DNA from: a virus
Taxonomy: Duplodnaviria; Heunggongvirae; Uroviricota; Caudoviricetes
Virus record (IMG/VR): IMGVR_UViG_2541047932_000021
Reading direction: 5' to 3' (one strand)
Length of the DNA: 33,489 nt
Part shown: piece by piece, positions 2,754 to 33,489 of the stretch
Numbering within the stretch: position 1 is the first letter of the stretch
How the letters are laid out: each line of letters opens with the position of its first letter
Program-made: the position numbers and the translations under genes
The notes under the pieces: generated by a model
The model's input: the letters and a program-made list of their open reading frames with translations, nothing else
What the model was told of the DNA's origin: nothing
Database searches by the model: none

Positions 2754-2957
2754 ATGTCAGGTATAACCATCAATATCAATGTGAATGCCCCCTATGTATC
2801 CCTGCAGAAATATGCAGAGATAACAGGTATCCCTCTTAATACATGCAAAAAGATGTTGGCTGACGGTCGAATTATTATCCGACCCAAACGCGCCAAAATG
2901 GAAAAGCCTGAAGTAAACCTTGTGGCGATGTTAAAAGACGCTTTGGCTAACAGCTAA
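2754..2957 (+). CDS. Cox/excisionase-like HTH regulator
   Basis: 67 aa; SD GGAGG 8 nt upstream; segment APYVSLQKYAEITGIPLNTCKKMLADGRI resembles the P2 Cox DNA-binding region. Confidence 0.5.
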   Translation: MSGITININVNAPYVSLQKYAEITGIPLNTCKKMLADGRIIIRPKRAKMEKPEVNLVAMLKDALANS

Positions 2958-2978
2958 AACAATGAACAGAGCACCATC

Positions 2979-8496: not shown

Positions 8497-10246
8497 CAGA
8501 ACTCCATAACTGTGAAACGCTCGTTTTCTCCTTCGCCGCCAATTGGTTCGTTAATGACAGCAAGCATGGTTGCCCACGCAAGGTCGCCGTGGCTGCTCCC
8601 CCTCGCGCGGTCCGTTTCGTAAGTGATAAAGCCGCCCGGTGTTTTCACCTTACGCACGGCGTTAAAGGCCGCGACCAGCTCGCGTTCGGCGCGATCGTAT
8701 TCCCACCGCCCGGCACGCATTATTTGCAGCATTTTCAGTACAAGCGACCGTTTTGATGACAGCGTGAAGGTGTACGGAATAGCGGCAGGGAAAAACCGTT
8801 TCACTATCTGATAAACAGCCTCCCCGTTCCCGCCCGTCACATCAATGCCGATGTGTTCCACGTTGTAGCGATACGTGAAATCTTCAATGACTCTGGCCTG
8901 TTCTTCAAACTCCAGCCCCTGAACGCGTCGCGTCTCCACCGTTCGAAAACGGCCACCAGGAACAGCCGGAGGAACCACCACGGACACAGCGCCGCTGTCG
9001 CCGTTGCCACTGCTGCCGTTTGCGTCATACCCAATCCATACCGGACGATTCCCCATCGGGCGGGGAGCAAAAGGTTTCCAGTCTTTCCAGTCGTCGTATC
9101 CGTCAACACCGCAGCCAATCAGGATATTCAGGTTAAATGCCGATTCCCCTTCGCGGACAAACTCACACATATAGAGATTGAGGAACTCGTCTTCGGTGTT
9201 TTCATCACGAATTTCGTCGATATCGGTGTGTTTCCAGCCGTGATTAACCACATCTTCCAGCGTGACAATTTGCCGCCACGTCCGGTCAGGGCAGATAAGC
9301 CCGTTATGCAGCGTTTTCCAGTCCACAGAAAAACGCTGGCGTTTATGCGTGGCCTTTTTCTCGTTCCAGCGGTCGCCGTTCCAGTAGGCGTATGCTTCGT
9401 GCGTTTCGGTGGATGGCGTGGAGAAGTAGGTGCGCCGCAATCCGCTGAGGGTTGCCATAGCGCCAGCCACCTTGCGCAGTTCAGCAAAGCGACTGACCCA
9501 GAAAAATTCATCAAAATAAAAATTGCCCGTATAGGACTGCGCCGACGCAGCAGAAGTGCCGAGAAAATGCAGCTCTGCGCCGTTGGAGAGGATGATTTTA
9601 TCGCCCCCTTTCAGCTCCACATCAACTTCAGCCGCAGCCTTCTGAATAATGCTTTTAAACTGGAACGCCTGACGACGCGACGCAGACAAAAAATCTGGTT
9701 ACGCTGGTAAGGTTGCGCCACATCGTCACGCAGCGCCATCAGCAGTGCTTCCTGTGCAAAATACCAGGTCGCGCCAATCTGTCGGGATTTCAGGATCATC
9801 CTGTTACGTATCCCGGCTTCCCTGCAAAGGGTCAGGGAGTCAAACCAGCCCCGCTGATGCCACTCCAGCCTGCTGATGATTTTTTCCCGCAGTGCGGCAA
9901 TCTGTTCCGGCGTGAAATGATTTTTGAGTTTTTTCGCCCGGCCTTTCTTTCCTGTGGCCGTCGCATCCGGCTGGCCATCATGCATTTTTTTAAGCTGCCG
10001 GGTCAGCAGGTCTATTTCCTTAAAGTCACCGCCTGTTTTATTCTGTTTTTCAGTAAGCTGGATGAGGCGCGCATCGATGGACTGCGTGACACGCTGCACG
10101 GGTGGCGTTTCATCCCACTGGTCGCGTTTTTTCCACGCATAAATCGTGTTCGGGTTTATTCCCATCAGACGTGATATTTCTGCGGGCGGATAACCCTGCC
10201 AGTAAAGTTGCCGCGCACGCTGGCGCACAAAAGCGTCCTGAATCAT
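8496..10246 (-). pseudogene. P: Large terminase (ATPase) subunit gpP, interrupted by a 1-nt frameshift in a homopolymer
   Basis: N-terminal ORF 9611..10246 and C-terminal ORF 8496..9689 are each P2 gpP-like; frames diverge at the A6 run 9688-9693; one extra A would give a continuous ~583-aa protein reading NQIF-LSAS. Confidence 0.75.
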
Positions 10247-10400
10247 TGCTCCCCCTGAGTAATTACAGGAAGATTACCCGCGCGCGAAACCGTTCTCCTT
10301 AACCCCCTGTTCTGGCCGTTTTCTTACAACAAAAGCCCTTTGTATCAGCCTGTTACGCTTTGCCATCATGACTGAAGAACCAGTCAGAGGGGCAAAAACT

Positions 10401-15142: not shown

Positions 15143-15218
15143 CGCGGATAAACGGGCCATTGCTGAACTGGATAAGAGAATAGCCGAACTGACACACCAG
15201 ACGGGAGTAACACAATGA
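14907..15218 (+). CDS. o-spanin (Rz1/LysC-like outer-membrane lipoprotein), partly nested in the i-spanin gene
   Basis: Different frame starting inside the i-spanin gene; lipobox LLTGC; proline-rich; SD GGAGAGG before GTG 14907 (alternative start ATG 14937). Confidence 0.7.
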   Translation: MNSYATILQKMNAPTLCLTLVLLTGCAGTQNAPRPAPSIRLIPQTLTMPVTPPPFPAPPTWGNLGIWGDRLLDALETCNADKRAIAELDKRIAELTHQTGVTQ

Positions 15219-17095
15219 CCAGTAAGAACTTTGCACTGATTACAGCCATGACACAGGCTGAACTGACCCGGAAAGTGAATGAATATCTTGCGAAGGGGTG
15301 GCATCTTCAGGGGGACACACGGGTAGCTTACGAGCCCGGCACCCCGTGGTATCTCATGCAGGCCATGGTGGCCGATGGTGCCACCGAGACGCCCTCTGAG
15401 CCATTACCAAACAACAAGACGCCGGAATGGTACTACGTGGTTGTGCTTGCCGGGCAGTCCAACGGCATGGCTTACGGTGAAGGGCTTCCGTTACCGGATT
15501 CTTACGATGCTCCGGATCCGCGCATTAAACAGCTTGCGCGCCGCAGTACGGTAACCCCGGGTGGAGAGGGTTGTACGTATAACGACATCATCCCGGCTGA
15601 CCACTGTCTGCATGATGTGCAGGATATGAGTACGCTGAATCATCCGAAGGCGGACCTGAGCAAAGGTCAGTACGGCTGTGTGGGACAGGGACTTCATATT
15701 GCCAAAAAACTACTCCCGTATATCCCGAATAACGCGGGGATCCTGCTGGTACCATGCTGTCGTGGTGGTTCGGCATTCACTCAGGGCGCGGAGGGAACAT
15801 TCAGTACGACCACGGGGGCCAGCCAGGATTCGGCGCGCTGGGGTGCGGGTAAGCCGTTATATCAGGACCTGATCGCACGCACCAAAGCGGCATTACAGAA
15901 GAACCCGAAAAATGTGTTGCTGGCGGTGTGCTGGATGCAGGGCGAATTTGACATGAGCGCTGCCACCTACGCACAGCAACCGGACCTGTTCACGGCCATG
16001 CTGAAGCAGTTCCGTACTGACCTTTCCGGATTTAACGCGCAGTGCCATGGCGGCAGTGCTGCAGTTATACCGTGGATTTGTGGCGACACGACGTATTACT
16101 GGAAAAACACATACGGCACACAGTATGACTCCGTCTACGGCGCGTACAAAAACAGGGAGAGCGACAACGTTTTCTTTGTGCCGTTCATGACCGACGGTAA
16201 CGGCAACAACACGCCCACCAACTTACCGGCAGAAGACCCGGATATTGCTGATGCAGGTTATTACGGCGCGCAATCCCGTAGTAATGGTAATTGGGTATCG
16301 TCAAATCGTCCGACACATTTCAGTTCATGGGCGCGCAGGGGCATTATTTCGGATCGCCTGGCAACCGCTATTCTGAACGCAGTTGGTCGAACCAGCGCCT
16401 TCATCAGCGGTACCGCACCGGAAATCAAACCCTCGCCCGGCGGCGACACTCCATCGGGGCCGTCTGATGGTGACACATCCGTTCGTACAGTCTCCCTGCT
16501 GCCGACAGCCGGAGAGGCTGCTGCGCAGGGCTGGACCATCACCGGCGGCAGTGTTGCGCTGGAAGATGGTGTGTTTAAGGTTACCAAGCAGAGCAATAAA
16601 ACTTGGTCCCTGATGCATCCGGTGGATGACGCAGTCTCCCTGCTGACACGGGGTGGCAGACTGAGCTGTAAGTTTCGACTGTCAGGCGCACTGACCAACA
16701 ACCAGTTCGGTCTGGGAATTTATCTGTATACCGATGTAGCGTTACCTGACGTCGTGGCGATGACCGGGACTGGTAACCCGTTCCTGATGTCGTTCTTCAC
16801 CCAGACCACAGACGGCAAACTGAATCTGATGCATCACAAGAAAGCCGGAAACACAAAGTTGGGTGAGTTCGGGAATTACAGTAACGACTGGCAGACGCTG
16901 GAGCTGGTGTTCACCGCCGGCAGTGCCACGGTTACTCCGAAACTGAATGGAGTGGCTGGCCCGGCATTCCAGGTCATAAAAGACAGTCTGACACTGGGGC
17001 TGAATGCGCTGACGTTAACTGATATCACTAAAAATGCCGCGTACGGCGTCGATATCGGCAGCCTGGTGCTGGAAATCAATAATCCCGCAGTATAA
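15215..17095 (+). CDS. NanS-p-like carbohydrate O-acetylesterase (DUF1737 N-domain, SASA/SGNH-type esterase core, C-terminal beta-rich domain)
   Basis: 626 aa; N-terminus MTSKNFALITAMTQAELTRKVNEYLAKGWHLQGD; GQSN motif in VVVLAGQSNGMAYGE; ATG overlaps the o-spanin stop. Confidence 0.7.
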   Translation: MTSKNFALITAMTQAELTRKVNEYLAKGWHLQGDTRVAYEPGTPWYLMQAMVADGATETPSEPLPNNKTPEWYYVVVLAGQSNGMAYGEGLPLPDSYDAPDPRIKQLARRSTVTPGGEGCTYNDIIPADHCLHDVQDMSTLNHPKADLSKGQYGCVGQGLHIAKKLLPYIPNNAGILLVPCCRGGSAFTQGAEGTFSTTTGASQDSARWGAGKPLYQDLIARTKAALQKNPKNVLLAVCWMQGEFDMSAATYAQQPDLFTAMLKQFRTDLSGFNAQCHGGSAAVIPWICGDTTYYWKNTYGTQYDSVYGAYKNRESDNVFFVPFMTDGNGNNTPTNLPAEDPDIADAGYYGAQSRSNGNWVSSNRPTHFSSWARRGIISDRLATAILNAVGRTSAFISGTAPEIKPSPGGDTPSGPSDGDTSVRTVSLLPTAGEAAAQGWTITGGSVALEDGVFKVTKQSNKTWSLMHPVDDAVSLLTRGGRLSCKFRLSGALTNNQFGLGIYLYTDVALPDVVAMTGTGNPFLMSFFTQTTDGKLNLMHHKKAGNTKLGEFGNYSNDWQTLELVFTAGSATVTPKLNGVAGPAFQVIKDSLTLGLNALTLTDITKNAAYGVDIGSLVLEINNPAV

Positions 17096-20039: not shown

Positions 20040-20640
20040 TTCACTGTTACCACCATCAGCCAGCAATTTCATGCGTTGTGCCGAAGCCGTCGGAACACGC
20101 ATTACAGACATTCCGGTAGACCTCAACACGCTGTGGTCGCCGGACACCTGCCCGGTGCATCTGCTGCCTTATCTCGCCTGGGCGTTTTCCGTTGACCGCT
20201 GGGATCGCAACTGGCCGGAAGAGACAAAGCGACAGGTGATTCGTGATGCATGGCTGACACACCGACACAAAGGGACCATCAGCGCACTGCGAAGAGCCGT
20301 GGAGCCTCTCGGCTACCTGATTGAAGTAAAGGAGTGGTGGCAACTCAACGAGGAGCCAGGAACATTTCGCATTGTTGTCGGAGTACTTGATCAGGGCATC
20401 ACCGATGAAATGTATCAGGAACTTGAGCGCCTTATTGCGGATGCAAAACCAGTAAGTCGCCATCTGACGGGGCTGGCGATCAGCCTGAGTGTGAACGGAA
20501 AGATTTTCGTTGGTACGGGATGCTATCACGGCGATGCCCTGACGGTTTATCCCTACATCCCGGAGTCCATTATTGTCGAAGGGGATTATTTCCCTGCCCC
20601 GGCCATTCATTTAATTGATAATCTGAGAGTAAACGCATGA
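20032..20640 (+). CDS. I: Baseplate / tail formation protein gpI
   Basis: ATG 20032 overlaps the J stop; [14 protein letters not shown] and VSRHLTG motifs as in P2 gpI. Confidence 0.85.
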
Positions 20641-22640
20641 CAGTGAAATACTACGCCATTCTGACTAATCAGGGCGCGGCACGACTGGCTAACGCGACGA
20701 TGCTCGGCAGTAAGCTGAATCTGACGCAAATGGCCGTTGGTGATGCAAATGGTGTGTTACCAACACCAGACCCTGCACAAACAAAACTGATTAACCAGAA
20801 ACGCATTGCACCGCTGAATCTTCTGAATGTTGACCCTAACAATCAGAGCCAGATTATTGCGGAGCAAATCATCCCTGAAGACGAGGGAGGATTCTGGATC
20901 CGTGAGATTGGTCTTTATGATGATAAAGGTGTACTCATTGCGGTGGCAAACTGCCCGGAAACGTACAAACCGCAGTTGCAGGAAGGCAGTGGACGCACCC
21001 AGACTATCCGCATGATTCTGGTTGTCACGAACACCAAAGCCATCACGCTGAAAATCGACCCGTCTGTGGTTCTGGCAACCCGCAAATATGTGGATGATAA
21101 AATCTCAAAGCACGAGCAGTCACGACGTCACCCGGACGCCTCGCTGACCGCAAAAGGCTTTGTTCAACTCAGTAGCGCCACCAACAGCGATTCAGAAACG
21201 CTGGCGGCAACACCAAAGGCGGTAAAGGCAGCCTATGACCTTGCTAACGGGAAATATACCGCACAGGACGCCACGACAGCACAAAAAGGCATTGTCCAGC
21301 TCAGTAGCGCCACCAACAGCGATTCAGAAACGCTGGCGGCAACACCAAAGGCGGTAAAGGCAGCCTATGACCTTGCTAACGGGAAATATACCGCACAGGA
21401 CGCCACGACGGCACAAAAAGGAATTGTCCAGCTCAGTAGTGCAACCAACAGCACATCTGAAACGCTTGCTGCAACACCGAAAGCAGTGAAAGCAGCTAAT
21501 GACAATGCGAATGGTCGGGTACCTTCTGCCCGTAAGGTGAATGGTAAGGCGCTTTCGGCGGATATAACACTGACGCCGAAAGATATTGGTACGCTTAACT
21601 CAACAACAATGTCATTCAGCGGTGGTGCTGGTTGGTTCAAATTAGCAACGGTAACCATGCCACAGGCGAGTTCTGTTGTTTCAATTACGTTGATTGGTGG
21701 CGCTGGATTTAACGTCGGTTCACCTCAACAGGCAGGTATATCTGAACTTGTTTTGCGTGCAGGTAATGGTAATCCGAAGGGGATTACTGGTGCTTTATGG
21801 CAGCGCACATCGACAGGGTTTACAAATTTTGCCTGGGTCAATACATCTGGTGATACTTACGATATTTACGTTGCAATCGGAAATTATGCGACTGGTGTAA
21901 ATATTCAATGGGATTATACCAGTAATGCCAGCGTGACGATTCATACGTCACCAGCATATTCTGCTAATAAGCCGGAAGGGTTAACGGACGGTACAGTTTA
22001 TTCACTCTATACGCCATCAGAGCAGTTTTATCCGCCTGGCGCACCAATCCCGTGGCCATCGGATACCGTTCCGTCTGGTTATGCCCTGATGCAGGGGCAG
22101 ACTTTTGACAAATCTGCCTACCCGAAACTTGCAGCCGCTTATCCGTCAGGCGTGATCCCTGATATGCGTGGCTGGACGATTAAGGGCAAACCCGCCAGTG
22201 GCCGGGCCGTATTGTCTCAGGAACAGGACGGCATTAAATCGCACACCCACAGCGCCAGCGCATCCAATACGGATTTGGGGACGAAAACCACATCGTCGTT
22301 TGATTACGGTACTAAAACGACCAGTTCATTTGATTACGGCACAAAAACCACAAATAGCGCAGGAGCTCATTCACACAATATACCTGTTGGTCACACTGGC
22401 GCGGGGAATGGTGTATCAGCCGGTTATAACGCTGCGTTAGGTACTGGTACCACGTCGAGCGCAGGAGAGCATGCTCACAATGTATATATCGGTGCCCATA
22501 ACCACACTATCGGCATTGGTGCTCATGCCCATTCTGTCATTATTGGTCCCCACGGACACACCATCACCGTTAATGCTACGGGGAACGCAGAAAACACCGT
22601 AAAAAACATCGCATTTAACTATATTGTGAGGCTTGCATAA
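20637..22640 (+). CDS. H: Tail fibre protein gpH with internal tandem repeats and His-rich C-terminal region
   Basis: 667 aa; N-terminus and C-terminus ([39 protein letters not shown]...[18 protein letters not shown]) match P2 gpH as recalled. Confidence 0.9.
21168..21563 (+). repeat. Three in-frame tandem 132-bp (44-aa) repeats inside gene H
   Basis: Unit starts at 21168, 21300 and 21432; copies 1 and 2 differ at 2 of 132 nt; copy 3 is diverged. Confidence 0.9.
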
Positions 22641-23218
22641 TGACATTCAGAATGAGTGAACAATCACGGACCATAAAAATTTATAATCTACTGACCGGAA
22701 CCAATGAGTTTATTGGTGAAGGTGATGCATACATTTCACCTCATACAGGTCTGCCTGCAAACAGTACCGATATTGCCCCGCCAGATATTCCGGCTGGCTT
22801 CGTGGCCGTTTTCAACAGTGATGAGGCATCGTGGCATCTCGTTGAAGACCATCGGGGTAAAACGGTTTATGACGTGGCATCAGGGGACTCGTTATTTATT
22901 TCTGAACTCGGTCCGTTACCGGAAAATGTTACCTGGTTGTCGCCGTATGGAGAGTATCAGAAGTGGAACGGCACATCCTGGGTGAAAGATGCAGAAGCAG
23001 AAAAACTATTTCGGATAAGGGAGGCGGAAGAAACAAAAAACAGCCTGATGCAGGTAGCCAGTGAGCATATTGCACCACTTCAGGATGCTATAGATTTAGA
23101 TATTGCGACGGAGGAAGAGACATCGTTACTGGCTGCATGGAAGACATATCGAGTATTGTTGCATCGTGTTGATACAACAGTAGCAGCAGATATTGAGTGG
23201 CCAGTCGCCCCACAATAA
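22640..23218 (+). CDS. G: Tail fibre assembly chaperone gpG
   Basis: 192 aa; ATG overlaps the H stop; Tfa-like sequence. Confidence 0.85.
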
Positions 23219-23227
23219 AAAGAAAAA

Positions 23228-23251
23228 GCCATCGATAGAAATATCGATGGC
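23228..23251. terminator. Bidirectional hairpin terminator between convergent G and the acetyltransferase gene
   Basis: Perfect 10-bp stem GCCATCGATA / TATCGATGGC with GAAA loop, flanked by an A-run upstream and TTTAT downstream. Confidence 0.6.
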
Positions 23252-23261
23252 TTTATGTACT

Positions 23262-23834
23262 CTATTTATACAATACAGCACCGCTCTTTTTAGTTATATA
23301 TGTGCAGTTCGATGGTATATCTTTATTTATAAAAGACATTGCACCTATTTTTACATTATCCCCAATTTTACGGGATAATCCAATGATGCAACAATTAGCT
23401 CCGATATCAACGTTGCTACCAATTTTTACTCTTGAACCAGGTATGTCACCATCTATCTGTCCAATGGTCGTATTCTGTCGTAACACCAGATTTTCACCAG
23501 CATCAACAGCAAAATGAACAACAATTCCAGCATGATGGGGAATTGTTAACCCTTTTCCAATATTTGCGCCCAATCCAATTTCGCAACCAAATTTGTTAAT
23601 TATTTTACTGTTTAACTTCTTGGCTGCTTTCTTATGTAATTTATTACCATTAATATACATTTCGTTAGCCAACCGCCACCAGAAAAGGAAATTCCTGTTA
23701 CGCTGCTTTTTCTCTCTTAAAAGCCTCCAGATATCCATACGTTTCCGCCGAATTACTTCATGTTTCCAGAAGTTTTTTAAATTAGTAGAGTTCCCAAATA
23801 AAACAAAGTGAATTGCCATTAGGTAAGACAGCAC
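23262..23834 (-). CDS. Hexapeptide-repeat (left-handed beta-helix) acetyltransferase, CysE/NodL/NeuO-like; AT-rich cargo gene
   Basis: Core HHAGIVVHFAVDAGENLVLRQNTTIG...KIGSNVDIGANCCIIG; start set at GTG 23834 with AAGGAG 6 nt upstream (ORF track begins at 23867); AT-rich compared with flanking tail genes. Confidence 0.65.
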   Translation of the reverse strand: MLSYLMAIHFVLFGNSTNLKNFWKHEVIRRKRMDIWRLLREKKQRNRNFLFWWRLANEMYINGNKLHKKAAKKLNSKIINKFGCEIGLGANIGKGLTIPHHAGIVVHFAVDAGENLVLRQNTTIGQIDGDIPGSRVKIGSNVDIGANCCIIGLSRKIGDNVKIGAMSFINKDIPSNCTYITKKSGAVLYK

Positions 23835-23990
23835 GATAATCTCCTTAATTATTATTTCAGACCACACATGTTATAAGGTTAAGAGATTATAAAATCCTGT
23901 TGTTTATTATTCAAAAACAATTTTCTGAGAAGGACATACAACAGCAAGTCGCCAGTCACCTTCATCAGGAAATTGGCGACATACGTTAAA

Positions 23991-24485
23991 TCAGAGCAGC
24001 CCCTTAACTGAGCTGGCCGCGCTATTAAGGGATGATGTCACCTTATCTTTGAAGCCGGACAACATATCGCTGAACGATGAGGATTGCAGGCGCTCCCGCA
24101 AATCCTCATCACAGCGTTCAAGAGTCAGTGAAAATTCTATCTTTTTCGCCTTACCGTAGCGATCAAACTCGGAACGGCTCGTATTCGTTTCAGTCAGTAC
24201 ATACATGCCGTAAATCTGCCCGACACCATCAATCAGAGGCCAGGGCCGTCCTGTATATGCCTGCGTGGTCAGCAATGAAAGCGACACTTCGCCACCTGTA
24301 ATTTCAGGATAAAGCACGCCGGAAAGCACAATGCGATCATCACCTGCACCGATATACTGCCAGCTTGCTGAACGGTTAACGCGTTCATTTTTCACATGCC
24401 GCCAGCTTTTGTTTTGCTGTAACTGCTGATGCGGCAATGTGCGCAGCTCAAAAACAAACATGCCGTAGATCATCATCATGACCAT
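23991..24485 (-). CDS. U: Tail protein gpU
   Basis: 164 aa; P2 gpU-like. Confidence 0.8.
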   Translation of the reverse strand: MVMMMIYGMFVFELRTLPHQQLQQNKSWRHVKNERVNRSASWQYIGAGDDRIVLSGVLYPEITGGEVSLSLLTTQAYTGRPWPLIDGVGQIYGMYVLTETNTSRSEFDRYGKAKKIEFSLTLERCDEDLRERLQSSSFSDMLSGFKDKVTSSLNSAASSVKGLL

Positions 24486-24491
24486 GACTCC

Positions 24492-27308
24492 TCAATCTTT
24501 ATCGTAAAAACTGCCACGTCCGGCACGGGCGCGCCGTTCCATCTCTGCCCTGACCATTTCACCGACCAGTTTCGCCAGTTCGCGGGGATTCTGCGTAACA
24601 ACGTTATGCAGATGAACATGAATTTCACCGCAAAATCCGGAGACAGCAGGCTCCCGGTTACGGGAAGTTGCAGGAACTGATGCCACTGGCGATCGTATGG
24701 CCTCCGCCACCGGGCGGGAGCTGGCCGCAACAACAGGGACCAGCGCCGGAGGCAGCGGAGCCGAGACCACGGGTGTGATATTAATTGCGGGGGCAGGCTT
24801 ACTGACCTGCGCAATCTTCCGCTCCTGCCACTCCCCACGAACAGCAAGTGCGCGGGGCAGGTTCTTAAAGACAATATCGCCGGGGCCAATGCGTTTTTTC
24901 GTCTCATCAACCAGCTTACCTGTGTTATCAGCAATTTTGCTGAGTCTGCGTAGCGTCCCGGTATTGCTGTCTGTGAGCGGTTTGTTGTCTTTGGGTTTAT
25001 CACCTCCGGTGCCATTGCCATTTTCCACAGGCTTCGGCGGATTGATTTTCGCCAGGTCCCCCTGAAGCAAGGCAACCTTGTCCTGAAGAATGGCCGCACG
25101 CTGTGCGTCTTCGATTTTCTTGCGCGCCCTTTCCGCTTCATCCGGAAGGACACCAAGTTTTTCAAGTATCCACGCCAGCGTATCCAGTAGCATTTTTGCA
25201 GGTGTCAGAACAAGTTGTAACGCACCGCCAAGAACGTTACCGAATACCTCGCCAGCACTGGTGCATTTATCCAGCGTTTCCTTGCTGGACTCCATCGGTG
25301 ACAACAGCGATTTAAACCAGTTAAACACCAGGCTGATCCCGCTTCCGATTGCGTCAAAAACAGGGCCAAACCGTTCAAAGGTTTCACGCAACGGGGTCAG
25401 CCTTTCCATAATCCCGCTGAACACCCCGGCAAAAAATGCCCTGATGGGATCCCAGTATTTCCAGATAAGAACGGCAGCTCCGGCAAGCGCAGCCACGATA
25501 AGACCAACCGGACTGAACAGCGCCCCGATAGCGCCACCCAGCAAAGAAACAGAACCCGTCACCATTCCCCACAGCGCAGGCAACACCCTGATGACATTCA
25601 TTGACCGGGTAAGAATGTCGAAACCAAGACGCAAGGTGGCCAGCTTCCCGTAAAGCACCCCAATAACCAGCGACAACGAGCCAATCGTTGCAGTCATTGC
25701 CAGCAACGCACCGCCTGCTATCAGTAGCTGGCGCGTCAGTACCGGATGGGCCTGCGCCAGCGAGGTGATTTTTTCAAGCACCCGCGTGAGCCACTGCGTG
25801 ACAGAACGCAGCGGACCGTCAACCAGATCACTGATGCGAATACGAAGACCTTCCCATGCGCTGTCGAGATTTTTCAGGTCTCCATCAAGATTATCGGCCA
25901 TTACTTTTGCAACGCGATCGGCCTCTCCCCTTGCCCCCTGCAATTCTCTGGTCAGTTTTTGCAGTTCTCCTGAACCAGCCGCCGCAACAAGCGTCTGCAA
26001 ACCAACGAACGCCTCTTCTCCGGCGATGTCCTTGAAGAAGGAGACCTGGTCCACCTGTCCGTATTTTTGTGTCGCCTTATAGAGATCAAGCAGCACATCC
26101 TCCATCGGGCGCATTTTGCCTCTGGCGTCAGCAACTGACACCCCCAGCTCTTTCAGTGCATCAGCCGCAGCTTTTGGCGGTGATGCAAGGCGGGACAGAC
26201 TTGCGCGCATGGCCGTACCAGCATCGCTTCCGCGAAGACCATTATTGGCAAGCATCCCGGCCATGGCCGCCGCTTCTTCAAGACTGATACCAAGTTTTGC
26301 GGCAACCGGACCGGTATACTTCATGGTTTCGCCCAGCGCGCGTAAATCAGTATTGGTCCGGGTGAATGCTGCTGTCAGCGTATCGCCAACCCGGTCCATT
26401 TGATCGGCTGTCAGGTTGAACTGTGTGAGGATATTGGAGCCTATATCAGCCGTCTCGCCGAGTTCGACGCCACCTGCCAGCGCCATATTAAGAACACCGG
26501 GCAATGCGGTCTGAATGGCCTGCGGAGTAAAACCAGCCATTGCCAGAAAGCTCTGCCCACTGGCGGCATCACTCGCAGTAAACTGTGTTTCAGAACCAAG
26601 TTTTAACGCCTGCTCACGCAGCGCCTTAAACTGCGGGCTGTTTTTGTCGATTCGCGTCAGTGCCTGAACGCGGGACATCTCTTTGCCGAACCCGATCGCA
26701 GGCTGCAAAAAACGCCCGGCAGCATAGCCGCCAGCCGCTGCAGCACCAATTGCCAGCGCACCACCTGTTTTCAGTTTTCCCGCGGTTTCCTGCGCGCGCG
26801 AATACCGCTCACGCGCCCGCGTTACACGCGCAAGCGCCTGCCGTTCGCGTTCAAGCTGGTTGTTGTACTGTTCGGTGCGTCTGATGGCCTGCTGGATGGT
26901 GTTATCGCTGCCTGTCAGGGAAATGCCGTGGCGTTTCAGCTCTCCGCCAAGCTCCCGCATTTTCTGAATTTCCCGTGTGCGCGATTCATTCAGGCGTTCA
27001 AGCCGGGTGCTTAACTGCTGCATCAGCTTTTGTTGTTTTTCGCTGAGCACTGTACCCGTGCGTTGTAACTGATTAAGGGCGTTAAGCTGGCGTCGTGCTT
27101 TCACGATGCCAGCATCCGCTTTACTGACAGCGTCACGGGCGCGCTCAAATGAACGCGCCTGACGCTCGAGATTTTTGATCGCCCCCTGCGTTCGCTGGAT
27201 GGAGTCACCAAACTGCCCCATCAGGCGGCGGGCGTTTTCGGCAGGCCGGGTCAGCCTGTCAACGGCGCTGAAAGCGACCCGGATATCAAGAGTCTTCATT
27301 ATCTGCAT
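24492..27308 (-). CDS. T: Tail tape measure protein gpT
   Basis: 938 aa; long helical, Ala/Gly-rich protein downstream of E/E'. Confidence 0.85.
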   Translation of the reverse strand: MQIMKTLDIRVAFSAVDRLTRPAENARRLMGQFGDSIQRTQGAIKNLERQARSFERARDAVSKADAGIVKARRQLNALNQLQRTGTVLSEKQQKLMQQLSTRLERLNESRTREIQKMRELGGELKRHGISLTGSDNTIQQAIRRTEQYNNQLERERQALARVTRARERYSRAQETAGKLKTGGALAIGAAAAGGYAAGRFLQPAIGFGKEMSRVQALTRIDKNSPQFKALREQALKLGSETQFTASDAASGQSFLAMAGFTPQAIQTALPGVLNMALAGGVELGETADIGSNILTQFNLTADQMDRVGDTLTAAFTRTNTDLRALGETMKYTGPVAAKLGISLEEAAAMAGMLANNGLRGSDAGTAMRASLSRLASPPKAAADALKELGVSVADARGKMRPMEDVLLDLYKATQKYGQVDQVSFFKDIAGEEAFVGLQTLVAAAGSGELQKLTRELQGARGEADRVAKVMADNLDGDLKNLDSAWEGLRIRISDLVDGPLRSVTQWLTRVLEKITSLAQAHPVLTRQLLIAGGALLAMTATIGSLSLVIGVLYGKLATLRLGFDILTRSMNVIRVLPALWGMVTGSVSLLGGAIGALFSPVGLIVAALAGAAVLIWKYWDPIRAFFAGVFSGIMERLTPLRETFERFGPVFDAIGSGISLVFNWFKSLLSPMESSKETLDKCTSAGEVFGNVLGGALQLVLTPAKMLLDTLAWILEKLGVLPDEAERARKKIEDAQRAAILQDKVALLQGDLAKINPPKPVENGNGTGGDKPKDNKPLTDSNTGTLRRLSKIADNTGKLVDETKKRIGPGDIVFKNLPRALAVRGEWQERKIAQVSKPAPAINITPVVSAPLPPALVPVVAASSRPVAEAIRSPVASVPATSRNREPAVSGFCGEIHVHLHNVVTQNPRELAKLVGEMVRAEMERRARAGRGSFYDKD

Positions 27309-27552
27309 TCCCGCTGCGAAGTGCCGCCCGCTCGCGCCAGCTAACCACTTCGCCGGGCGTCATCATGAAGATTTCGGCGGGCGACCAGTTAAAAATGGCG
27401 GCAATATCCGCCACCAGATCTTCGATGTGCTCAAAGCACACCAGGGTGATTACGCTGCCGTCTCCTGCACGCTCTTCGCGCCAGAGTCTGGCTCGCTCAT
27501 AAAATTTACAGCCACTGCGCACAACTGAATAAAATCGCGTGACGACATTTTT
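27286..27552 (-). CDS. E' extension frame, expressed as an E+E' fusion by -1 frameshift
   Basis: -1 frame relative to E opens at 27552, immediately after a TAA in that frame, exactly at a run of 7 A on the coding strand (27548-27554). Confidence 0.55.
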   Translation of the reverse strand, partial: KNVVTRFYSVVRSGCKFYERARLWREERAGDGSVITLVCFEHIEDLVADIAAIFNWSPAEIFMMTPGEVVSWRERAALRSGNADNEDS

Positions 27553-27824
27553 TTAATCATCACTTCATCCAGTCGTGGCGAGGTCACGCGAGGCAACAGC
27601 GTAAACATGGTATCCGCTTTCAGATTCAGCACATCAGACAGCGACAGACCACGCAGGGATCCAGCCTGCTCAATAGCCCCGGTGATCTCCACATACGTGA
27701 TTTTTTCGCCACCACGCTCAATTGGTCGGGTCAGTTTTACGCCACGTTCGACAGCCATATCCTCACCTGCCGTCACATCATCCGCCACGGTGTTATTCCG
27801 GGTTTCAGTATCGATGTCTTTCAT
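27450..27824 (-). CDS. E: Tail assembly chaperone gpE
   Basis: 124 aa ORF between FII and T; start could be M23; overlaps E' in the -1 frame. Confidence 0.7.
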   Translation of the reverse strand: MKDIDTETRNNTVADDVTAGEDMAVERGVKLTRPIERGGEKITYVEITGAIEQAGSLRGLSLSDVLNLKADTMFTLLPRVTSPRLDEVMIKKMSSRDFIQLCAVAVNFMSEPDSGAKSVQETAA

Positions 27825-27879
27825 CAGTTGTCTCCTTTTCAGTCAAAGGCGACGCACTGCGCCGCCTGCATATTACTTA

Positions 27880-28392
27880 TCAGCCAAGCCCAAGCGCGGA
27901 ACGGATACGGTCAGGCACAATGTCCTTGCCGTCCTTCCGGTAGATGTGGTTCAACAGGTCGATTTCCCACAGCGGGCGATCGTTAACGCTCAGCTTGTAG
28001 TAGGTGTTTTTGACAGCGTAAGTGTGTGATGTGGCTTCGCCCTGTTTGGCTTCCCCCATATCAATTTCCGTCACACGCCCGCGCATCTCGATTTCATACA
28101 GATCGCTTTCTGCATCGGTGTAGTATTCACCCGCAAAACGCAGCAGCGTGCCGTCAATCGTGCCGCCATATTTAAGGAACAGCGCACGAACAGCTCCCCC
28201 CATGACAAAACTCGCATCAAGCGCGGAGTCGTCCAGACCGAGATCAATACTTACCGCCCCCATCATGCCACCACCACGATAGCTGTCGGTTTTGCGCGTC
28301 AGTTTGGGCGGCGTGACGGATGTCACTTTACCCACTTCGTTTTCACCATCCACAAACAACGTAAAAAAGCGAAGATGTTTTGGTACAGCCAT
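27880..28392 (-). CDS. FII: Major tail tube protein gpFII
   Basis: 170 aa; P2 FII-like. Confidence 0.85.
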   Translation of the reverse strand: MAVPKHLRFFTLFVDGENEVGKVTSVTPPKLTRKTDSYRGGGMMGAVSIDLGLDDSALDASFVMGGAVRALFLKYGGTIDGTLLRFAGEYYTDAESDLYEIEMRGRVTEIDMGEAKQGEATSHTYAVKNTYYKLSVNDRPLWEIDLLNHIYRKDGKDIVPDRIRSALGLG

Positions 28393-29576
28393 CAGGCACC
28401 TCCCAGCACCGCAAATGCGGGACCAAAGAATTCATCAGTAAACGTCTGGTAAAGCTCCATGTCTTCCAGCGGGGGAACAGGCGTATATTTGTAGCGAATA
28501 CGCACACGTCCCTGACGTAAATTCGTGGTGCCGTTATCCACCACGTCATACCAGCACTCCGCACCAATCAGTTTCCCGGCAGTAACCAGCGAATCCAGTT
28601 TTGCCCTGATGGCGCTGATAACATCCTTCACGTTCGCAGGTGTCAGTGGACTGTCGATGGTTTCAAACTGCGCTTCCGCAATTGAATCAGCCAGCACCTG
28701 TGCGGTTCGGGTATACACCTCAAAGATGTAGGCGTTCGTTTCCGGTGTGCGGTTGCCCCAGAAGCGGAACCCGTTGCGACGAATAATGGTCGTGATTTCT
28801 TTGTTGTTGAGGCTATTGGCATCGCTGTCTTCGGCCTGCAACGACCAGAACACATGCCTGGACATTCCCAGCACATTTTTAACCGGAACGTTGGACAGCG
28901 ATTTGTGCCAGCCCTGCTCATGGTCAATGTACGCACGAAGGCCGCACGCATAAGCAGGCGCGGGGAACGTTTCGTTTTTGCCACTTTTCGGGTTGTAGGC
29001 GATGAAGTCCGGCCATAAGAGCATCACCTCACGTTCGTTGAATTTCTGGCGGTAGGTAATCGCCTCAGCCATCGTGTTACAGCCGTGACATGAGGCATAC
29101 ACAAACGCGCGCAGTTTACCTGCAATCACGCACAGGGATTTTGTTACAGCCTCCGTGTCCAGCTCCGGCGCGGCCAGAATACGCGGACGGTATCCGATGC
29201 TTTCATCCTGCTCTGCAACAAGCAGCGCATACATCCCCGTATAGCTGCCGTCATCCTCAGAACCACCGATAACCAGTTGATCCTGCGTCTTTCCGTCTTC
29301 TTCTTTGTGTTCAGCCACGCGAACGACGATCACCTTTGTGCTCACCTGGTCTGCGATGGCCTTAAGCGCACGATAAAGCGTCCCCGTTGTCCCGCATTTT
29401 CCCAGCACGTCATTGACGCGGGTCAGCAGTGTGGGCTTATTCAGCGGGAACAGCTTCGCGTCCGCATCATCCGCCGTTGCCACGATACCGATAACGCTGG
29501 AATCAACATCGTTAATCGCTGTTACCAGGTCGGTATTTTCCGTAACACGGGCACCATGAAAACGAGTTTCACTCAT
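28392..29576 (-). CDS. FI: Tail sheath protein gpFI
   Basis: 394 aa; P2 FI-like motifs FPLNKP, LRAF, GWHK, FRFWGNRT, YTRTAQV, YTPVPPLE. Confidence 0.9.
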   Translation of the reverse strand: MSETRFHGARVTENTDLVTAINDVDSSVIGIVATADDADAKLFPLNKPTLLTRVNDVLGKCGTTGTLYRALKAIADQVSTKVIVVRVAEHKEEDGKTQDQLVIGGSEDDGSYTGMYALLVAEQDESIGYRPRILAAPELDTEAVTKSLCVIAGKLRAFVYASCHGCNTMAEAITYRQKFNEREVMLLWPDFIAYNPKSGKNETFPAPAYACGLRAYIDHEQGWHKSLSNVPVKNVLGMSRHVFWSLQAEDSDANSLNNKEITTIIRRNGFRFWGNRTPETNAYIFEVYTRTAQVLADSIAEAQFETIDSPLTPANVKDVISAIRAKLDSLVTAGKLIGAECWYDVVDNGTTNLRQGRVRIRYKYTPVPPLEDMELYQTFTDEFFGPAFAVLGGA

Positions 29577-29733
29577 AGCTTCAGCCCCTTGTATCCGTTA
29601 AATGATTCGGCAACAATCATCACCCACCACGTGCGTAATCTCACCCCTGCGCCGTTCTCCCGCCACGGCGACAACAAAAAGCAGTAACCCCCTCCGCACG
29701 CACATGCGACCATGCCGCACAGGGAGGGAACAG

Positions 29734-30843
29734 ATGACCGATACCACCATGCAATTGCTCAGTCAGGGCACAGACCCCGTGAAAATGCCGGATTTTGATA
29801 TTCTCGCGGAGGGTAAAACGCTGTCAGGCGTGGCAGAGCGCCTGATGAGCCTGTCACTGACCGACAACCGGGGATTTGAGGCGGACCAGCTCACCATCAC
29901 GCTGGATGATGCGGATGGTCAGTTGCAGCTACCGCCACGGGGCGCGCGCCTGACGGTTCTCATTGGCTGGAAAGGAGAACCGCTGACAGAAAAAGGCACT
30001 TACATTGTTGATGAAATCGCTCACGAAGGACCGCCGGACAGGCTGACTGTTTCAGCCAGAAGCGCAGATTTTCGGGATGAATTTAACGTTAAACGTGAGG
30101 TGTCCTGGCATGATGTGACCGTTGAGCGCGTGGTATCTGCCATCGCTCATCGGTACGGTCTGAAACCGCAAATCAGCGAAATGCTGATGGATATCGAAAT
30201 CGACCACGCCGACCAGACCGAAGAAAGCGATATGTCCTTCCTTACGCGCATGGCGGAAATGCTGGGCGCAATCACCACGGTAAAAAGCGGCAATCTGTTA
30301 TTCATCATGCCAGGTGGTGGCGTGAACGCACAGGGCCAGCCGTTGCCCTCGTTCGCCATTACACGCAGCAGCGGCGATCGCCATCAGTTCCGTATTGCTG
30401 ACCGCGAGGCGTATACGGGGGTACGCGCCTACTGGCTTGATCTTAATTACGGGAAAAAGAAAAAAGTCAGCGTGAAACGCCGTAAACCGCCAAAACCCAA
30501 AAAGGAGAAAAGCAGCAGCCGTGAAGGTGATTATATGGAAGGCGCGGAAGGCAATGTGTTTGTGTTACGCAAGACTTATCAGAACGAGCAGGCAGCAAGA
30601 CGCGCAGCGGCGGCAAAGTGGCAGCAGCTACAACGCGGAGCCGCATCATTCTCCATCACGCTGGCATGTGGTCGTGCAGAACTCTACCCCGAAATGCATG
30701 GCACGGTAACAGGATTTAAAAGCGAGATTGATAATCAGGACTGGATTATTGCAAAAGCCGAGCACACCATCGATAACAGCGGCTTTACCACGCAGCTTGA
30801 GCTTGAGGCAAAAATCTCGGAATGGATAGCAGAAACAGAGTGA
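29734..30843 (+). CDS. D: Late tail protein gpD
   Basis: ATG 29734 after SD AGGGAGGG; the ORF-track start at 29602 lacks an SD. Confidence 0.8.
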   Translation: MTDTTMQLLSQGTDPVKMPDFDILAEGKTLSGVAERLMSLSLTDNRGFEADQLTITLDDADGQLQLPPRGARLTVLIGWKGEPLTEKGTYIVDEIAHEGPPDRLTVSARSADFRDEFNVKREVSWHDVTVERVVSAIAHRYGLKPQISEMLMDIEIDHADQTEESDMSFLTRMAEMLGAITTVKSGNLLFIMPGGGVNAQGQPLPSFAITRSSGDRHQFRIADREAYTGVRAYWLDLNYGKKKKVSVKRRKPPKPKKEKSSSREGDYMEGAEGNVFVLRKTYQNEQAARRAAAAKWQQLQRGAASFSITLACGRAELYPEMHGTVTGFKSEIDNQDWIIAKAEHTIDNSGFTTQLELEAKISEWIAETE

Positions 30844-30885
30844 GCAACTTAGAATAGCAGCAGCACCACGTTAAGGGAGGTCGCT

Positions 30886-31146
30886 ATGTTCCGTTGTCCG
30901 CTTTGTGGCGCATCTGCCCGTATCCGCACCAGTCGTCCTGAAAATGATTCAAACACCGTGCGGCAAAAGTATTACCAGTGTAACAACCTGGAATGCGGCG
31001 TATGCTTCTCAACACTGGAAGCTTTCCATAAATTCACATCAAAACACACCTCCGGCGTTCACTCTTCAGAAGGTATCCCGTGGCATGAGCTGCCAGCTTC
31101 ACACAGGGGAAACAATCAGATGAGTTTGCCTTTACCTCAGAATTAA
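30886..31146 (+). CDS. ogr: Ogr/Delta-family zinc-finger late transcription activator
   Basis: 86 aa; MFRCPLCG...YYQCNNLECG Cys4 pattern as in P2 Ogr. Confidence 0.85.
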   Translation: MFRCPLCGASARIRTSRPENDSNTVRQKYYQCNNLECGVCFSTLEAFHKFTSKHTSGVHSSEGIPWHELPASHRGNNQMSLPLPQN

Positions 31147-31337
31147 CAGGCAGAATTGCCGGAGTAACAAAAAAGCGATAGATTACGCGCGGGTGCCTTT
31201 CGGCTGATGGTCGGAGGGAATACCCGAAGGCCAGATGTGGAAAGGCCCCGGAAAACATTTCTGTTTAACCGAGGCCCTAACATATCTACCTTAAGCAAGT
31301 GATAGGTTAGCGCCTCTCCAACAAAGGAGCAAGCGCT

Positions 31338-31478
31338 ATGTCGCAAAAATCGCTTACGGCCATCACGTTCTGCGTGACGGTAATCCTCATCATCTGGATG
31401 CTACACGGTTCGCTGTGTGAAATACGGATGAGCTTCTGGGGAGCGGAGTTTGCGGCGTTCTTACAGTGTAAGCAGTAA
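31338..31478 (+). CDS. Hok/Gef-family type I toxin (46 aa)
   Basis: MSQKSLTAITFCVTVILIIWMLHGSLCEIRMSFWGAEFAAFLQCKQ; N-terminal transmembrane helix plus conserved SLCEIR and AAF motifs; below the ORF-track size cutoff. Confidence 0.75.
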   Translation: MSQKSLTAITFCVTVILIIWMLHGSLCEIRMSFWGAEFAAFLQCKQ

Positions 31479-31566
31479 GGAAACCGCGACGGGGGAGCAA
31501 TCCCCCGTCAATCGGTTGCTAAGGTTGGCTGAAGTGGCACCCTATCTCACAGACATGAACAACAAA

Positions 31567-31598
31567 CCCGCAGCGTAAGAACTGCGGGTTTTCTTTTT
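31567..31598 (+). terminator. Rho-independent terminator downstream of hok
   Basis: Stem CCCGCAG / CTGCGGG followed by TTTTCTTTTT. Confidence 0.6.
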
Positions 31599-31666
31599 GG
31601 AACTATCACTAGCTAGTGTACCGTTAACGGCACATAATGCTCGCACAACAAACCTGTTAAAAGAGA

Positions 31667-31948
31667 TTACTCAGCATTCTCCTGCTTCCATTGCCGGATC
31701 ATTTCATCGGTAACATCACCCTCATAACATACCACGTCATACCCTCCATTACGGCTATATGCACTGCGTCCACCACATCTACTACCATTCCTTGCATGAT
31801 TATAAGGACACGCACAATTGCCTGGATAAGATTCAATGGATTCTTTAATTATTTCTTTTTTGATCTGAGCATCAGACTTTCCTGTTGCTGCATATCCGCT
31901 AAAAGATACTAAACAAAGGCAGATTGCCATTAATAAACCACATCGCAT
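31667..31948 (-). CDS. Small secreted cysteine-rich protein, unknown function
   Basis: Start taken at M39 of the ORF (signal peptide MRCGLLMAICLCLVSFSGYAA); four Cys in the mature part; AT-rich. Confidence 0.45.
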   Translation of the reverse strand: MRCGLLMAICLCLVSFSGYAATGKSDAQIKKEIIKESIESYPGNCACPYNHARNGSRCGGRSAYSRNGGYDVVCYEGDVTDEMIRQWKQENAE

Positions 31949-32486: not shown

Positions 32487-32573
32487 TGGTACCCGGAGCG
32501 GGACTTGAACCCGCACAGCGCGAACGCCGAGGGATTTTAAATCCCTTGTGTCTACCGATTCCACCATCCGGGC
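32487..32573 (-). tRNA. leuZ: tRNA-Leu (anticodon UAA)
   Basis: 87 nt; reverse complement reads GCCCGGATGGTGGAATCGGTAGACACAAGGGATTTAAAATCCC...GGGTACCA with CCA end. Confidence 0.9.
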
Positions 32574-32585
32574 TCGGGAAGAAAG

Positions 32586-32659
32586 TGGAGGCGCGTTCCG
32601 GAGTCGAACCGGACTAGACGGATTTGCAATCCGCTACATAACCGCTTTGTTAACGCGCC
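32586..32659 (-). tRNA. cysT: tRNA-Cys (anticodon GCA)
   Basis: 74 nt; reverse complement reads GGCGCGTTAACAAAGCGG...ATTGCAAATCC...GCGCCTCCA. Confidence 0.9.
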
Positions 32660-32713
32660 AAATTCTTCAGGCCTTTCAGCCAGACATCCGCTTGACGCCG
32701 ATGTCTTTTAAAC

Positions 32714-32789
<76 letters not shown>

Positions 32790-32940: not shown

Positions 32941-33489
32941 TCACTGATCAAGCAAATCTGCACGCGCAGCGCTCAAATATTGCAACATTGACCACAGAGT
33001 CAGTACCGCAGCCACAAAGAAAAGTGCAATACCGGCGTACTCAACCCAAATGTTCGGACGCCACAGCAGCCAGGCCAACGCCACCATCTGGGCAGTGGTT
33101 TTCACTTTCCCAATCCAGGAGACAGCCACGCTACTGCGTTTACCCAACTCCGCCATCCATTCGCGTAGCGCAGAAATAATAATTTCACGGGCGATCATCG
33201 TTGCCGCCGGTAGGGTCACCCACCAGCTGTGATAATGCTCGGTTACCAGCACCATGGCGATAGCCACGAGAACTTTATCTGCTACAGGGTCAAGGAAAGC
33301 ACCAAACCGGGTACTCTGGTTCCAGCGGCGTGCCAGAAAACCATCGAACCAGTCAGTCACCGCCGCGACGCAGAAAATGAGCGCGGCGGCAAACGGCGAC
33401 CAGGTGACAGGCAGATAAAAGACCAATACAAAGAATGGGATAAGGATGACACGGAACAGTGTAAGCAACGTAGGGATATTAAATTGCAT
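32941..33489 (-). CDS. pgsA: CDP-diacylglycerol--glycerol-3-phosphate 3-phosphatidyltransferase
   Basis: 182 aa multi-pass membrane protein matching E. coli PgsA as recalled ([27 protein letters not shown]...); adjacent to glyW-cysT-leuZ as in E. coli. Confidence 0.85.

Follow-up and report, generated by a model that had tools for sequence, protein, structure and literature searches.

The gene block FI-FII-E/E'-T-U of the P2-like element analysed here lies on the opposite strand from H, G, D and ogr, and our data on the window, i.e. the whole stretch of 33,489 nucleotides of virus record IMGVR_UViG_2541047932_000021, identify this inversion as the inherited order of a large P2-like branch. 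In the reading that we consider highly probable, the block was inverted a single time in an ancestor together with its late promoter PF, has been passed on since then as a fixed order, and would leave one Ogr site serving both FI and D.

The layout of the region was derived from the list of open reading frames, Pfam searches and tblastn with P2 proteins, and it agrees with the original prediction: FI, FII, E/E', T and U occupy the minus strand, from 29576 down to 23991, and H, G, D and ogr the plus strand. Specifically, the rightward late operon beginning at O (10401) is closed by H and tfa/G (20637-23218). The tail fibre gene H (20637-22640) encodes a protein 65% identical to residues 1-251 of P2 H and is followed by tfa/G (22640-23218); the Pfam matches of this pair are Phage_tail_fib, Phage_fiber_2, Collar and Caudo_TAP. 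The leftward F operon opens with the tail sheath gene FI (28392-29576; Pfam sheath domains; 45% identity to P2 FI), followed by the tail tube gene FII (27880-28392; Phage_tube, 2.1e-45; 42% identity), gpE (27450-27824; 35%), the tape measure gene T (24492-27308; PhageMin_Tail, 1.5e-56; 33%) and, as the final gene of the inverted block, U (23991-24485; Phage_P2_GpU, 7.8e-39; 46%). Frame analysis extends gpE on the minus strand to 27286, as E', via a -1 frameshift on the slippery sequence A_AAT_TTT (27507-27501), and RefSeq assigns the -1 frame of E. coli 55989 a CDS of the 'GpE family'.

On the plus strand, D (29734-30843; Pfam Phage_GPD) is intact, encodes 369 amino acids and forms a separate rightward unit. 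Its reading frame is open from 29602, a conserved Shine-Dalgarno sequence and ATG mark the start at 29734, and from residue 15 on the product shares 49% identity with P2 D. Located 42 bp 3' of D, the last gene (30886-31146, plus strand) encodes an 86-amino-acid zinc-finger late activator of the Ogr/Delta family (CX2C-X24-CX4C), scoring 52.4 bits against Pfam Ogr_Delta (PF04606), with a cut-off of 26.3. The ORF coordinates also bear out that D diverges from FI across 157 bp (29577-29733); since the inversion cuts D off from the F operon, the expectation that D needs its own promoter holds as well.

In P2, the genes from FI to U are co-directional with V-G and with D, U and D abut, and D is the last gene of the F operon under PF. 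In the window, by contrast, the block points the other way, D diverges from FI and the D N-terminus differs, whereas the F-operon genes are orthologous to those of P2 (33-49% amino-acid identity), and the E/E' frameshift, the Ogr-type activator and the dyad found ~82 bp upstream of FI in P2 are kept. The stretch orthologous to the P2 F operon, promoter included, runs from 23991 to ~29690. The inversion previously proposed is real relative to P2, but measures ~5.7 kb and not 6.4 kb, as 23220-23985 is cargo.

The window is a P2-family prophage of the P88-like (Xuanwuvirus) type and is 99% identical across 32 kb to the E. coli 55989 prophage, which adjoins tRNA-Leu/pgsA. Homologues of P2 Q, P, O, N, M, L, X, R, S, V, W, J, I, H and G, as well as of FI, FII, E, T, U, D and ogr, were found by tblastn (26-65% identity overall), and the Pfam families of the late genes agree with these assignments. 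About 23.8 kb of the window, entire tail block included, aligns to P88 at 77-97%, the ICTV criterion for membership of the genus Xuanwuvirus being ~70% nucleotide identity over the full length; the immunity end, the DUF6645 gene and the fibre cassette are without alignment to P88. The tail block, the 157-bp FI-D spacer, D and ogr are collinear with those of P88, P884B11, 500465-2 and Citrobacter phiSM, at 93-96% nucleotide identity. The G-U slot, which in P88 and phiSM holds an invertible tail-fibre segment and a DNA invertase gene, is occupied in the window by a tail-fibre C-terminus/tfa/acetyltransferase cassette. The window further differs from these two phages in its extra DUF6645 gene, in an A-Q deletion of 2.97 kb at 7611-7621 and in a frameshift of the terminase gene at the A-run 9686-9691; deletion and frameshift probably make this copy defective. 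P88 and phiSM themselves, both with the inverted order, form plaques and hence infectious particles (PMC5285337, PMC6456863).

The same divergent FI/D order, with a dyad in the spacer, is present in Salmonella SEN5 (Senquatrovirus), Klebsiella Kp4848-1 (Reipivirus) and Serratia KSP20, whose FI proteins are just 55-71% identical and whose G-U cargo is different. The canonical FI...U-D order is a feature of P2 (Peduovirus) and not of the Peduoviridae as a family, being absent from three other genera. The one-strand order attributed to P2 and its relatives thus applies to P2 itself, but not to P88, P884B11, 500465-2, phiSM, SEN5, Kp4848-1 and KSP20, and the arrangement cannot be peculiar to this element, as related phages share it as their normal order. 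Papers on P88, phiSM, SEN4/5 and the Serratia PP4 prophage hold no statement on gene orientation, and a search of the Xuanwuvirus literature returned nothing relevant.

The FI-D spacer (29577-29733) is a divergent control region with blocks conserved among 24 distinct sequences of the clade. It contains an Ogr-box-like dyad, GTTCT-N12-ACAACAAAA (29654-29679, plus strand), with the core TCT-N12-ACA at 29656-29673 and its centre at 29664.5. With up to 2 mismatches permitted, this extended motif is expected 0.22 times and matches exactly twice in the window, both times in a divergent late spacer, the second dyad mapping at 10309-10334 (plus strand) between the ATG codons of P (10246) and O (10401). 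Dyads are likewise paired in the P/O and FI/D spacers of P88, SEN5 and Kp4848-1. The P/O-spacer dyad serves as this element's own example of a late control region; the two sites were found by comparing the divergent spacers, and their left half is TCT. The strict TGT-N12-ACA has 2 irrelevant matches in the window, below chance, and the short dyad pattern, with 3 matches against 2.2 expected, is not rarer than chance, the third match, inside T (25214-25233), falling within this expectation. Evidential weight is therefore given to the extended motif and its conservation only. In SEN5, where a gap separates S and V, a further dyad match lies at the 3' end of S (9235-9254), just before the gap.

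The geometry of the site is conserved throughout the clade. T[GC]T-N12-ACAA occurs in the 22 distinct clade spacer sequences scored, and in the 24-sequence alignment the ACAAC arm is near-invariant (ACAAT in locus L007), the left arm being CCT in loci L015 and L054. The window's left half-site TCT departs from TGT; SEN5, Pectobacterium and LSJC7 relatives have TGT-N12-ACA. From the dyad centre, the FI ATG is 78.5-88.5 bp away across the clade (88.5 in the window) and the D ATG 68.5-73.5 bp (69.5 in the window), and the dyad and both distances are kept even where FI is just 58% identical. In P2, 82.5 bp separate the PF dyad from the FI ATG, and in 19 canonical loci this distance is 79.5-82.5 bp.

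Hexamers resembling -10 elements are arranged symmetrically about the dyad, each 43.5-48.5 bp from its centre. On the FI side, the geometry points to GATGAT (29616-29621, minus strand) as the -10 of the PF equivalent, with a predicted transcription start near 29609. At the mirror position, TGcGACCAT (29705-29713, plus strand; TGaAATCAT in relatives) is the putative extended -10 of a D-side late promoter, with a predicted start near 29720. Late promoters of the Ogr/Delta/B-dependent class start transcription ~55 bp from the dyad centre and depend on the activator and on RNA polymerase alpha. A comparable architecture is known from P2, where the sequence record gives pO and pP a single activator site, with starts 55.5 bp on either side of the dyad centre; PMC3931495 gives TGT-N12-ACA as the consensus and reports a shared PP'/PO' site for Stenotrophomonas phage Smp131. 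Like these two cases, the FI-D spacer combines a single dyad, a spacer of ~150-170 bp, divergent late genes and predicted starts ~55 bp away; unlike in P2 PP/PO, the gene pair is FI/D and not P/O, and the function is read here from sequence. We infer that the FI-D spacer acts as a bidirectional late promoter supplying D, with Ogr binding the dyad and activating from both of its sides. That a new rightward D promoter, with read-through into ogr, arose after the inversion by co-option of PF's palindromic Ogr site seems to us somewhat more plausible than not; such co-option is undiscussed in the accessible papers on P88, phiSM, SEN4/5 and PP4.

The alternative that survives best, although we judge it unlikely, is that D is expressed from an independent promoter, for instance a constitutive or otherwise regulated one, and that the dyad serves FI only. 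The D-side -10 hexamer, GACCAT, is indeed weak, the predicted leader is only ~13 nt long, and the interval from the dyad to D contains a GC-rich block, CGCGCGCGTG, that is conserved. However, a consensus scan of the plus strand found no sigma-70-like promoter in 29577-29733, the distance from the dyad to the D ATG is held across the clade, the D-side hexamer mirrors that on the FI side, and P2 PP/PO offers a precedent for the shared site.

With regard to its history, the inversion relative to P2 is a single, old and fixed one, because the inverted loci form one clade in the trees and the alternative orientation is absent from E. coli. When one genome per species was scanned, the inverted order was seen at 23 of 80 loci and the canonical order at all others; the two groups are split perfectly by FI similarity, and none of the 23 loci of the inverted clade showed the other orientation. 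Inverted loci are monophyletic in the FI, FII, U, D and V trees, and the J tree does not track the clade, which indicates some mosaicism. According to the mechanism that we propose, FI-FII-E/E'-T-U and PF would have been inverted once in the ancestor of a broad enterobacterial branch of the Peduoviridae, with breakpoints, deduced from present-day geometry only, placed upstream of PF and at the U/D boundary. In every inverted locus, the N-terminal ~14 amino acids of D resist alignment with P2 D, consistent with a break at the latter position. The inversion would have put the palindromic Ogr-binding site of PF ~70 bp upstream of D, and from there a single site may activate FI...U leftward and D rightward, probably on into ogr, as in P2 PP/PO.

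A different origin of the same gene order, by loss of the F block and gain, in reverse orientation, of a foreign sheath-tube-tape-measure module, could be envisaged, given that P2-like genomes are mosaic, that J falls outside the clade and that tail-fibre cassettes are exchanged. We regard it as improbable: genes of the block (FI, FII, U) and genes outside it (D, V) define the same monophyletic group and are equally distant from P2 (42-49%), and the PF dyad-to-ATG geometry is the canonical P2-type one. The late proteins of the window are all similarly diverged from P2 (33-65% identity by tblastn), and the F block is therefore orthologous and not foreign; neither the P2 distances nor the trees support a foreign origin. 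Still less credible is a segment switched by a site-specific invertase of the Gin/Cin/Hin type, with both orientations coexisting in populations. A DNA invertase gene does adjoin U in P88 and phiSM, where it serves the invertible tail-fibre segment, but the window lacks homology to the invertase region and SEN5 shows the inverted order without an invertase. As foreseen, no inverted repeats were found bracketing the block at 23.2-24.0 kb and 29.58-29.73 kb, and these data, together with the orientation counts (0 of 1415 E. coli genomes carrying these genes yielded the canonical U-D junction, searched with a synthetic query, besides 0 of 23 species loci), lead us to reject flipping. The assembly artefact initially considered, a mis-oriented segment of 5.7-6.4 kb, has a negligible probability: apart from the departure from P2 order, only an unusual deletion junction elsewhere in the window speaks for it, and it is refuted by the collinearity with isolated phages, by an FI/D junction contiguous in 1357 of 5426 complete E. 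coli genomes (about a quarter) and a tfa-acetyltransferase-U junction in 495, all independently finished, and by the absent canonical junction.

The acetyltransferase gene was correctly placed on the minus strand beyond U, but it is not an F-operon gene by descent: it belongs to the mobile tail-fibre cassette, and 23220-23985 is separately acquired cargo. The gene (23262-23867, GC ~37%) encodes a hexapeptide-repeat protein with a weak Pfam Hexapep match, named serine acetyltransferase by RefSeq, and with EpsC/CysE/WcaB-like NCBIfam matches under the curated cut-offs; for this protein and the DUF6645 protein, PADLOC and NCBIfam gave no defence system or family above cut-off. Similarity to P88 begins at 23985, and P88 is without a match at 21511-23985. 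Phages JL22 and Ro157c2YLVW carry the acetyltransferase gene at 93-95% nucleotide identity and likewise oriented, and in a P1-like phage the tail-fibre C-terminus/tfa/acetyltransferase cassette shows this convergent arrangement too. Just upstream of the gene, a pattern match to a sigma-70-like promoter of its own, TTGAAT-17-TATAAT (23886-23914, minus strand), agrees with 10 of 12 consensus positions. Between the convergent tfa and acetyltransferase genes, the terminator scan detected a hairpin with a 13-bp stem and a minus-strand T-run (23225-23254), which likely terminates leftward transcripts and possibly those of both directions. The acetyltransferase gene would thus be unrelated cargo, brought into the variable G-U slot by an exchange of tail-fibre cassettes.

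In conclusion, a very common group of enterobacterial prophages has the inverted order as its standard layout, and annotators using P2 as a template should flag this order neither as an error nor as a novelty. The regulatory point is a modest one, namely that an orphaned D could keep its Ogr control from the other side of a symmetric site. If true, the use of one site by two divergent late units would represent a second, independently evolved PP/PO design, and a natural case of an operon that survives its breakage by inversion thanks to a symmetric activator site.

The window holds a P2-family prophage and, after it, host DNA with the tRNA-Leu, tRNA-Cys and tRNA-Gly genes (32487-32789) and pgsA (32941-33489). 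Searches by tblastn with the P2 proteins gave matches, at 26-65% identity, for Q, P, O, N, M, L, X, R, S, V, W, J, I, H, G, FI, FII, E, T, U, D, ogr, int and A, the tail-gene identities being also backed by Pfam. Specifically, O through G are read rightward, while U (23991-24485), T (24492-27308), E (27450-27824), FII (27880-28392) and FI (28392-29576) are read leftward, and D (29734-30843) and ogr (30886-31146) rightward again, with a spacer of 157 bp between FI and D. These tblastn and Pfam assignments agree with the strands and the gap given in the original prediction. In P2, the same tail genes share one strand and the F operon ends with D, whereas here the block from FI to U is opposite to D. 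The programmed -1 frameshift of E/E' is kept on the minus strand (slippery sequence A_AAT_TTT, 27507-27501).

Some further features of the two ends deserve mention. An ORF 3' of ogr (31339-31479) encodes a small toxin of the Hok/Gef type and is so annotated in both E. coli 55989 and phage P88. In 55989 (31331-31797 of that locus), RefSeq/PGAP starts D at the equivalent of 30043, giving a 266-aa product of the 'VgrG/Pvc8 family', and adds an opposite-strand pseudogene fragment; the stretch concerned is 29734-30043 in the window, whose ORF is intact from 29734. The same product labels recur in several more top-match genomes. At the integrase/immunity end, positions 1-3026 have no nucleotide match in P88 and contain a 216-aa ORF with a weak Flk-like match, a repressor-like HTH ORF and a 115-aa ORF, the similarity to the 55989 prophage beginning at 1244.

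The order was then compared with that of phage records and complete genomes. With positions 22000-31200 as a megablast query, Citrobacter phage phiSM, Xuanwuvirus P884B11 and Escherichia phage P88 gave one-piece collinear matches over 23985-31200 (93-95% identity) that cross the FI/D junction, and phage 500465-2 a two-piece match (95.8%) spanning the same range; the annotated tail-gene strands of P88 and phiSM are identical to those of the window. Among 5426 complete E. coli genomes, the FI/D junction (29200-30100) is unbroken in 1357 and the tfa-acetyltransferase-U junction in 495. A synthetic U-D junction, built as in P2, served as query for the flipped form: in none of the 1415 genomes carrying these sequences does the 3' end of U stand straight before the 5' end of D. 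An assembly artefact is thus ruled out, as both junctions are intact across isolated phages and complete genomes, and the order is not a peculiarity of this element either. In addition, P88 (PMC5285337) and phiSM (PMC6456863) form plaques, and therefore the inverted order is compatible with viable tailed particles. According to the paper on phiSM (PMC6456863), its virion is that of a siphovirus, with a long tail that does not contract, yet the sheath protein of the deposited genome is 99% identical to the window FI, and this genome has a complete contractile tail set of the P2 type.

The present copy is about 99% identical to the 55989 prophage, from which it shows two differences. Firstly, it lacks a stretch of 2.97 kb that runs from the 3' part of A to the 3' end of Q, the junction (7611-7621) showing an 11-bp microhomology, CGCC[T/C]GGCATC, and fusing the truncated replication gene A to the truncated portal gene Q; this junction was found in none of the 5426 complete E. 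coli genomes. Secondly, the terminase gene P carries A6 (9686-9691) where 55989 has A7, which splits the large subunit into overlapping ORFs (8496-9689 and 9611-10246) and reflects either a genuine frameshift or an error in sequencing the homopolymer. Should these differences be genuine, no phage could be made from this copy, for reasons unrelated to tail-gene order. A DUF6645 gene (626 aa, 15215-17095), inserted within the late operon between the lysis genes and R, is present in 55989 and absent from P88, and its protein has no NCBIfam or PADLOC match.

The inverted block had been put at about 6.4 kb with the acetyltransferase gene as its distal part. The region 22027-23826, which takes in the end of H that encodes the C-terminus, tfa and the greater part of the acetyltransferase gene, has matches of 93-95% identity in phage JL22 and in the P1-like phage Ro157c2YLVW, whose annotation has the acetyltransferase gene convergent on tfa, as in the window. 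This gene, which has a low GC content, is preceded by a predicted sigma-70-like promoter (23914-23886) and followed by a strong hairpin (23225-23254). It belongs, as cargo, to a mobile tail-fibre cassette. This cassette occupies the variable slot between G and U, where it replaces the invertible fibre segment and the DNA invertase of P88 and phiSM; the equivalent slot of P2 holds fun(Z). The gene lies outside the ancestral block, which measures about 5.7 kb without it. Transcription of the F operon may read through into the gene, since the hairpin that overlaps the U stop codon is a weak one. The acetyltransferase is of the hexapeptide type, the fibre and tfa part of the cassette is about 88% identical to lambda stf/tfa, and the 3' part of tfa contains an Rfam IS009 match (22983-23181; 177 bits, gathering score 117).

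The depth of the inversion was assessed by a scan of one genome per bacterial species with an FI alignment as query, which returned 80 loci, and by tblastn strand calls for V, J, I, H, G, FII, E, T, U, D and ogr at each locus. In 23 loci, FI to U are opposite to both V-J-I-H and D-ogr. Their hosts are Salmonella, Citrobacter, Edwardsiella, Enterobacter, Kosakonia, Symbiopectobacterium, Mixta, Pantoea, Erwinia, Trabulsiella, Izhakiella, Klebsiella and Pectobacterium, together with a few other records, and their FI proteins are 58-98% identical to that of the window. At the remaining 57 loci, where FI identity does not exceed 51%, all detected genes lie on the FI strand, except for one G match, and the 51 loci with both U and D detected have the canonical order; the canonical loci include those of Burkholderia, the outgroup. 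With Burkholderia as the root, neighbour-joining trees show the inverted set as monophyletic for three genes of the block (FI, FII and U) and two genes beyond it (D and V), and not for J, which has evidently been exchanged. The inverted-clade locus of Trabulsiella odontotermitis, where D is truncated (its match begins at residue 208) and the FI strand also carries I and H, is apparently a decayed or further rearranged copy.

The inverted order, which the original prediction had treated as suspect, is the normal one in related phages, as it is shared, besides the P88 group, by Salmonella phage SEN5 (Senquatrovirus), Klebsiella phage Kp4848-1 (Reipivirus) and Serratia phage KSP20; in the depositors' annotation of the KSP20 fragment AB452988, the gpD-like and gpFI-like genes are on opposite strands. 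By tblastn, the block proteins have diverged from P2 to the same extent as those of the head and baseplate. Read most simply, these comparisons point to a single in-situ inversion in an ancestor of the branch, and not to the acquisition of a foreign module. The prediction was right that this is a true inversion relative to P2 and that D needs a promoter of its own: no upstream plus-strand gene reaches D, and therefore a promoter is needed in the 157-bp spacer.

By comparing this spacer with the other divergent late spacer of the window, between P (ATG at 10246) and O (ATG at 10401), we found a common motif, GTTCT-N12-ACAACAAAA, at 29654-29679 (FI/D) and 10309-10334 (P/O). No further match occurs in the window when up to two mismatches are allowed, so that two are observed against 0.22 expected; 1 of 100 shuffles reached two matches. 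The dyad core, T[C/G]T-N12-ACA, corresponds to the P2 late-promoter consensus TGT-N12-ACA (PMC3931495), the sites at P2's own PF and PO/PP being TGT-N12-CCA. T[GC]T-N12-ACAA is present in all 22 distinct inverted-clade spacers scored, with small departures in the alignment (left arm CCT in loci L015 and L054, ACAAT in L007); measured from its centre, the FI ATG is 78.5-88.5 bp away and the D ATG 68.5-73.5 bp. P88, SEN5 and Kp4848-1 also carry the dyad in both the P/O and FI/D spacers. The shorter pattern TCT-N12-ACAAC has a third match in the tape-measure gene (25214-25233, minus strand), seen also in P88 and not conserved in Kp4848-1 or SEN5; three occurrences against 2.2 expected in the window fall within the chance range.

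The dyad is flanked by -10-like hexamers at exact mirror positions, 43.5-48.5 bp either side of its centre: GATGAT on the FI side (29616-29621; GATTAT in most relatives) and, on the D side, the extended TGcGACCAT (29705-29713; TGaAATCAT in relatives). The P2 record gives a single activator site for both pP and pO; the dyad centre (3071.5) is midway between their mapped starts, 3016 and 3127, at 55.5 bp from each. The PF dyad lies 82.5 bp upstream of FI in P2 and 79.5-82.5 bp upstream in 19 canonical loci; as this distance is the same as in the inverted clade, PF therefore moved with the block. D residues 1 to about 14 are unalignable with P2 D in every inverted locus, and in most canonical enterobacterial loci the alignment starts from residue 1-2, a pattern that fits a break at the U/D boundary. 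Such an inversion would bring the symmetric Ogr site of PF as close as about 70 bp to D, where a suitably spaced -10 element would make it bidirectional. The weak points of this model are the left half-site of the window (TCT), the poor match of the D-side -10, a predicted D leader of only about 13 nt and a GC-rich block (29694-29706; CGCGCGCGTG in relatives) between the dyad and the predicted D-side -10, which is conserved in otherwise diverged loci (L006-L025 as aligned); P2 PF and PP also carry GC-rich stretches at this position.

In conclusion, phage genomes from at least three ICTV genera that have been deposited and published already show this arrangement, and gene orientation is undiscussed in the accessible papers on phages with this order. 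The sole mildly new element is the putative bidirectional Ogr site: we infer that a single site may drive both FI and D, with predicted starts near 29609 (leftward) and near 29720 (rightward).
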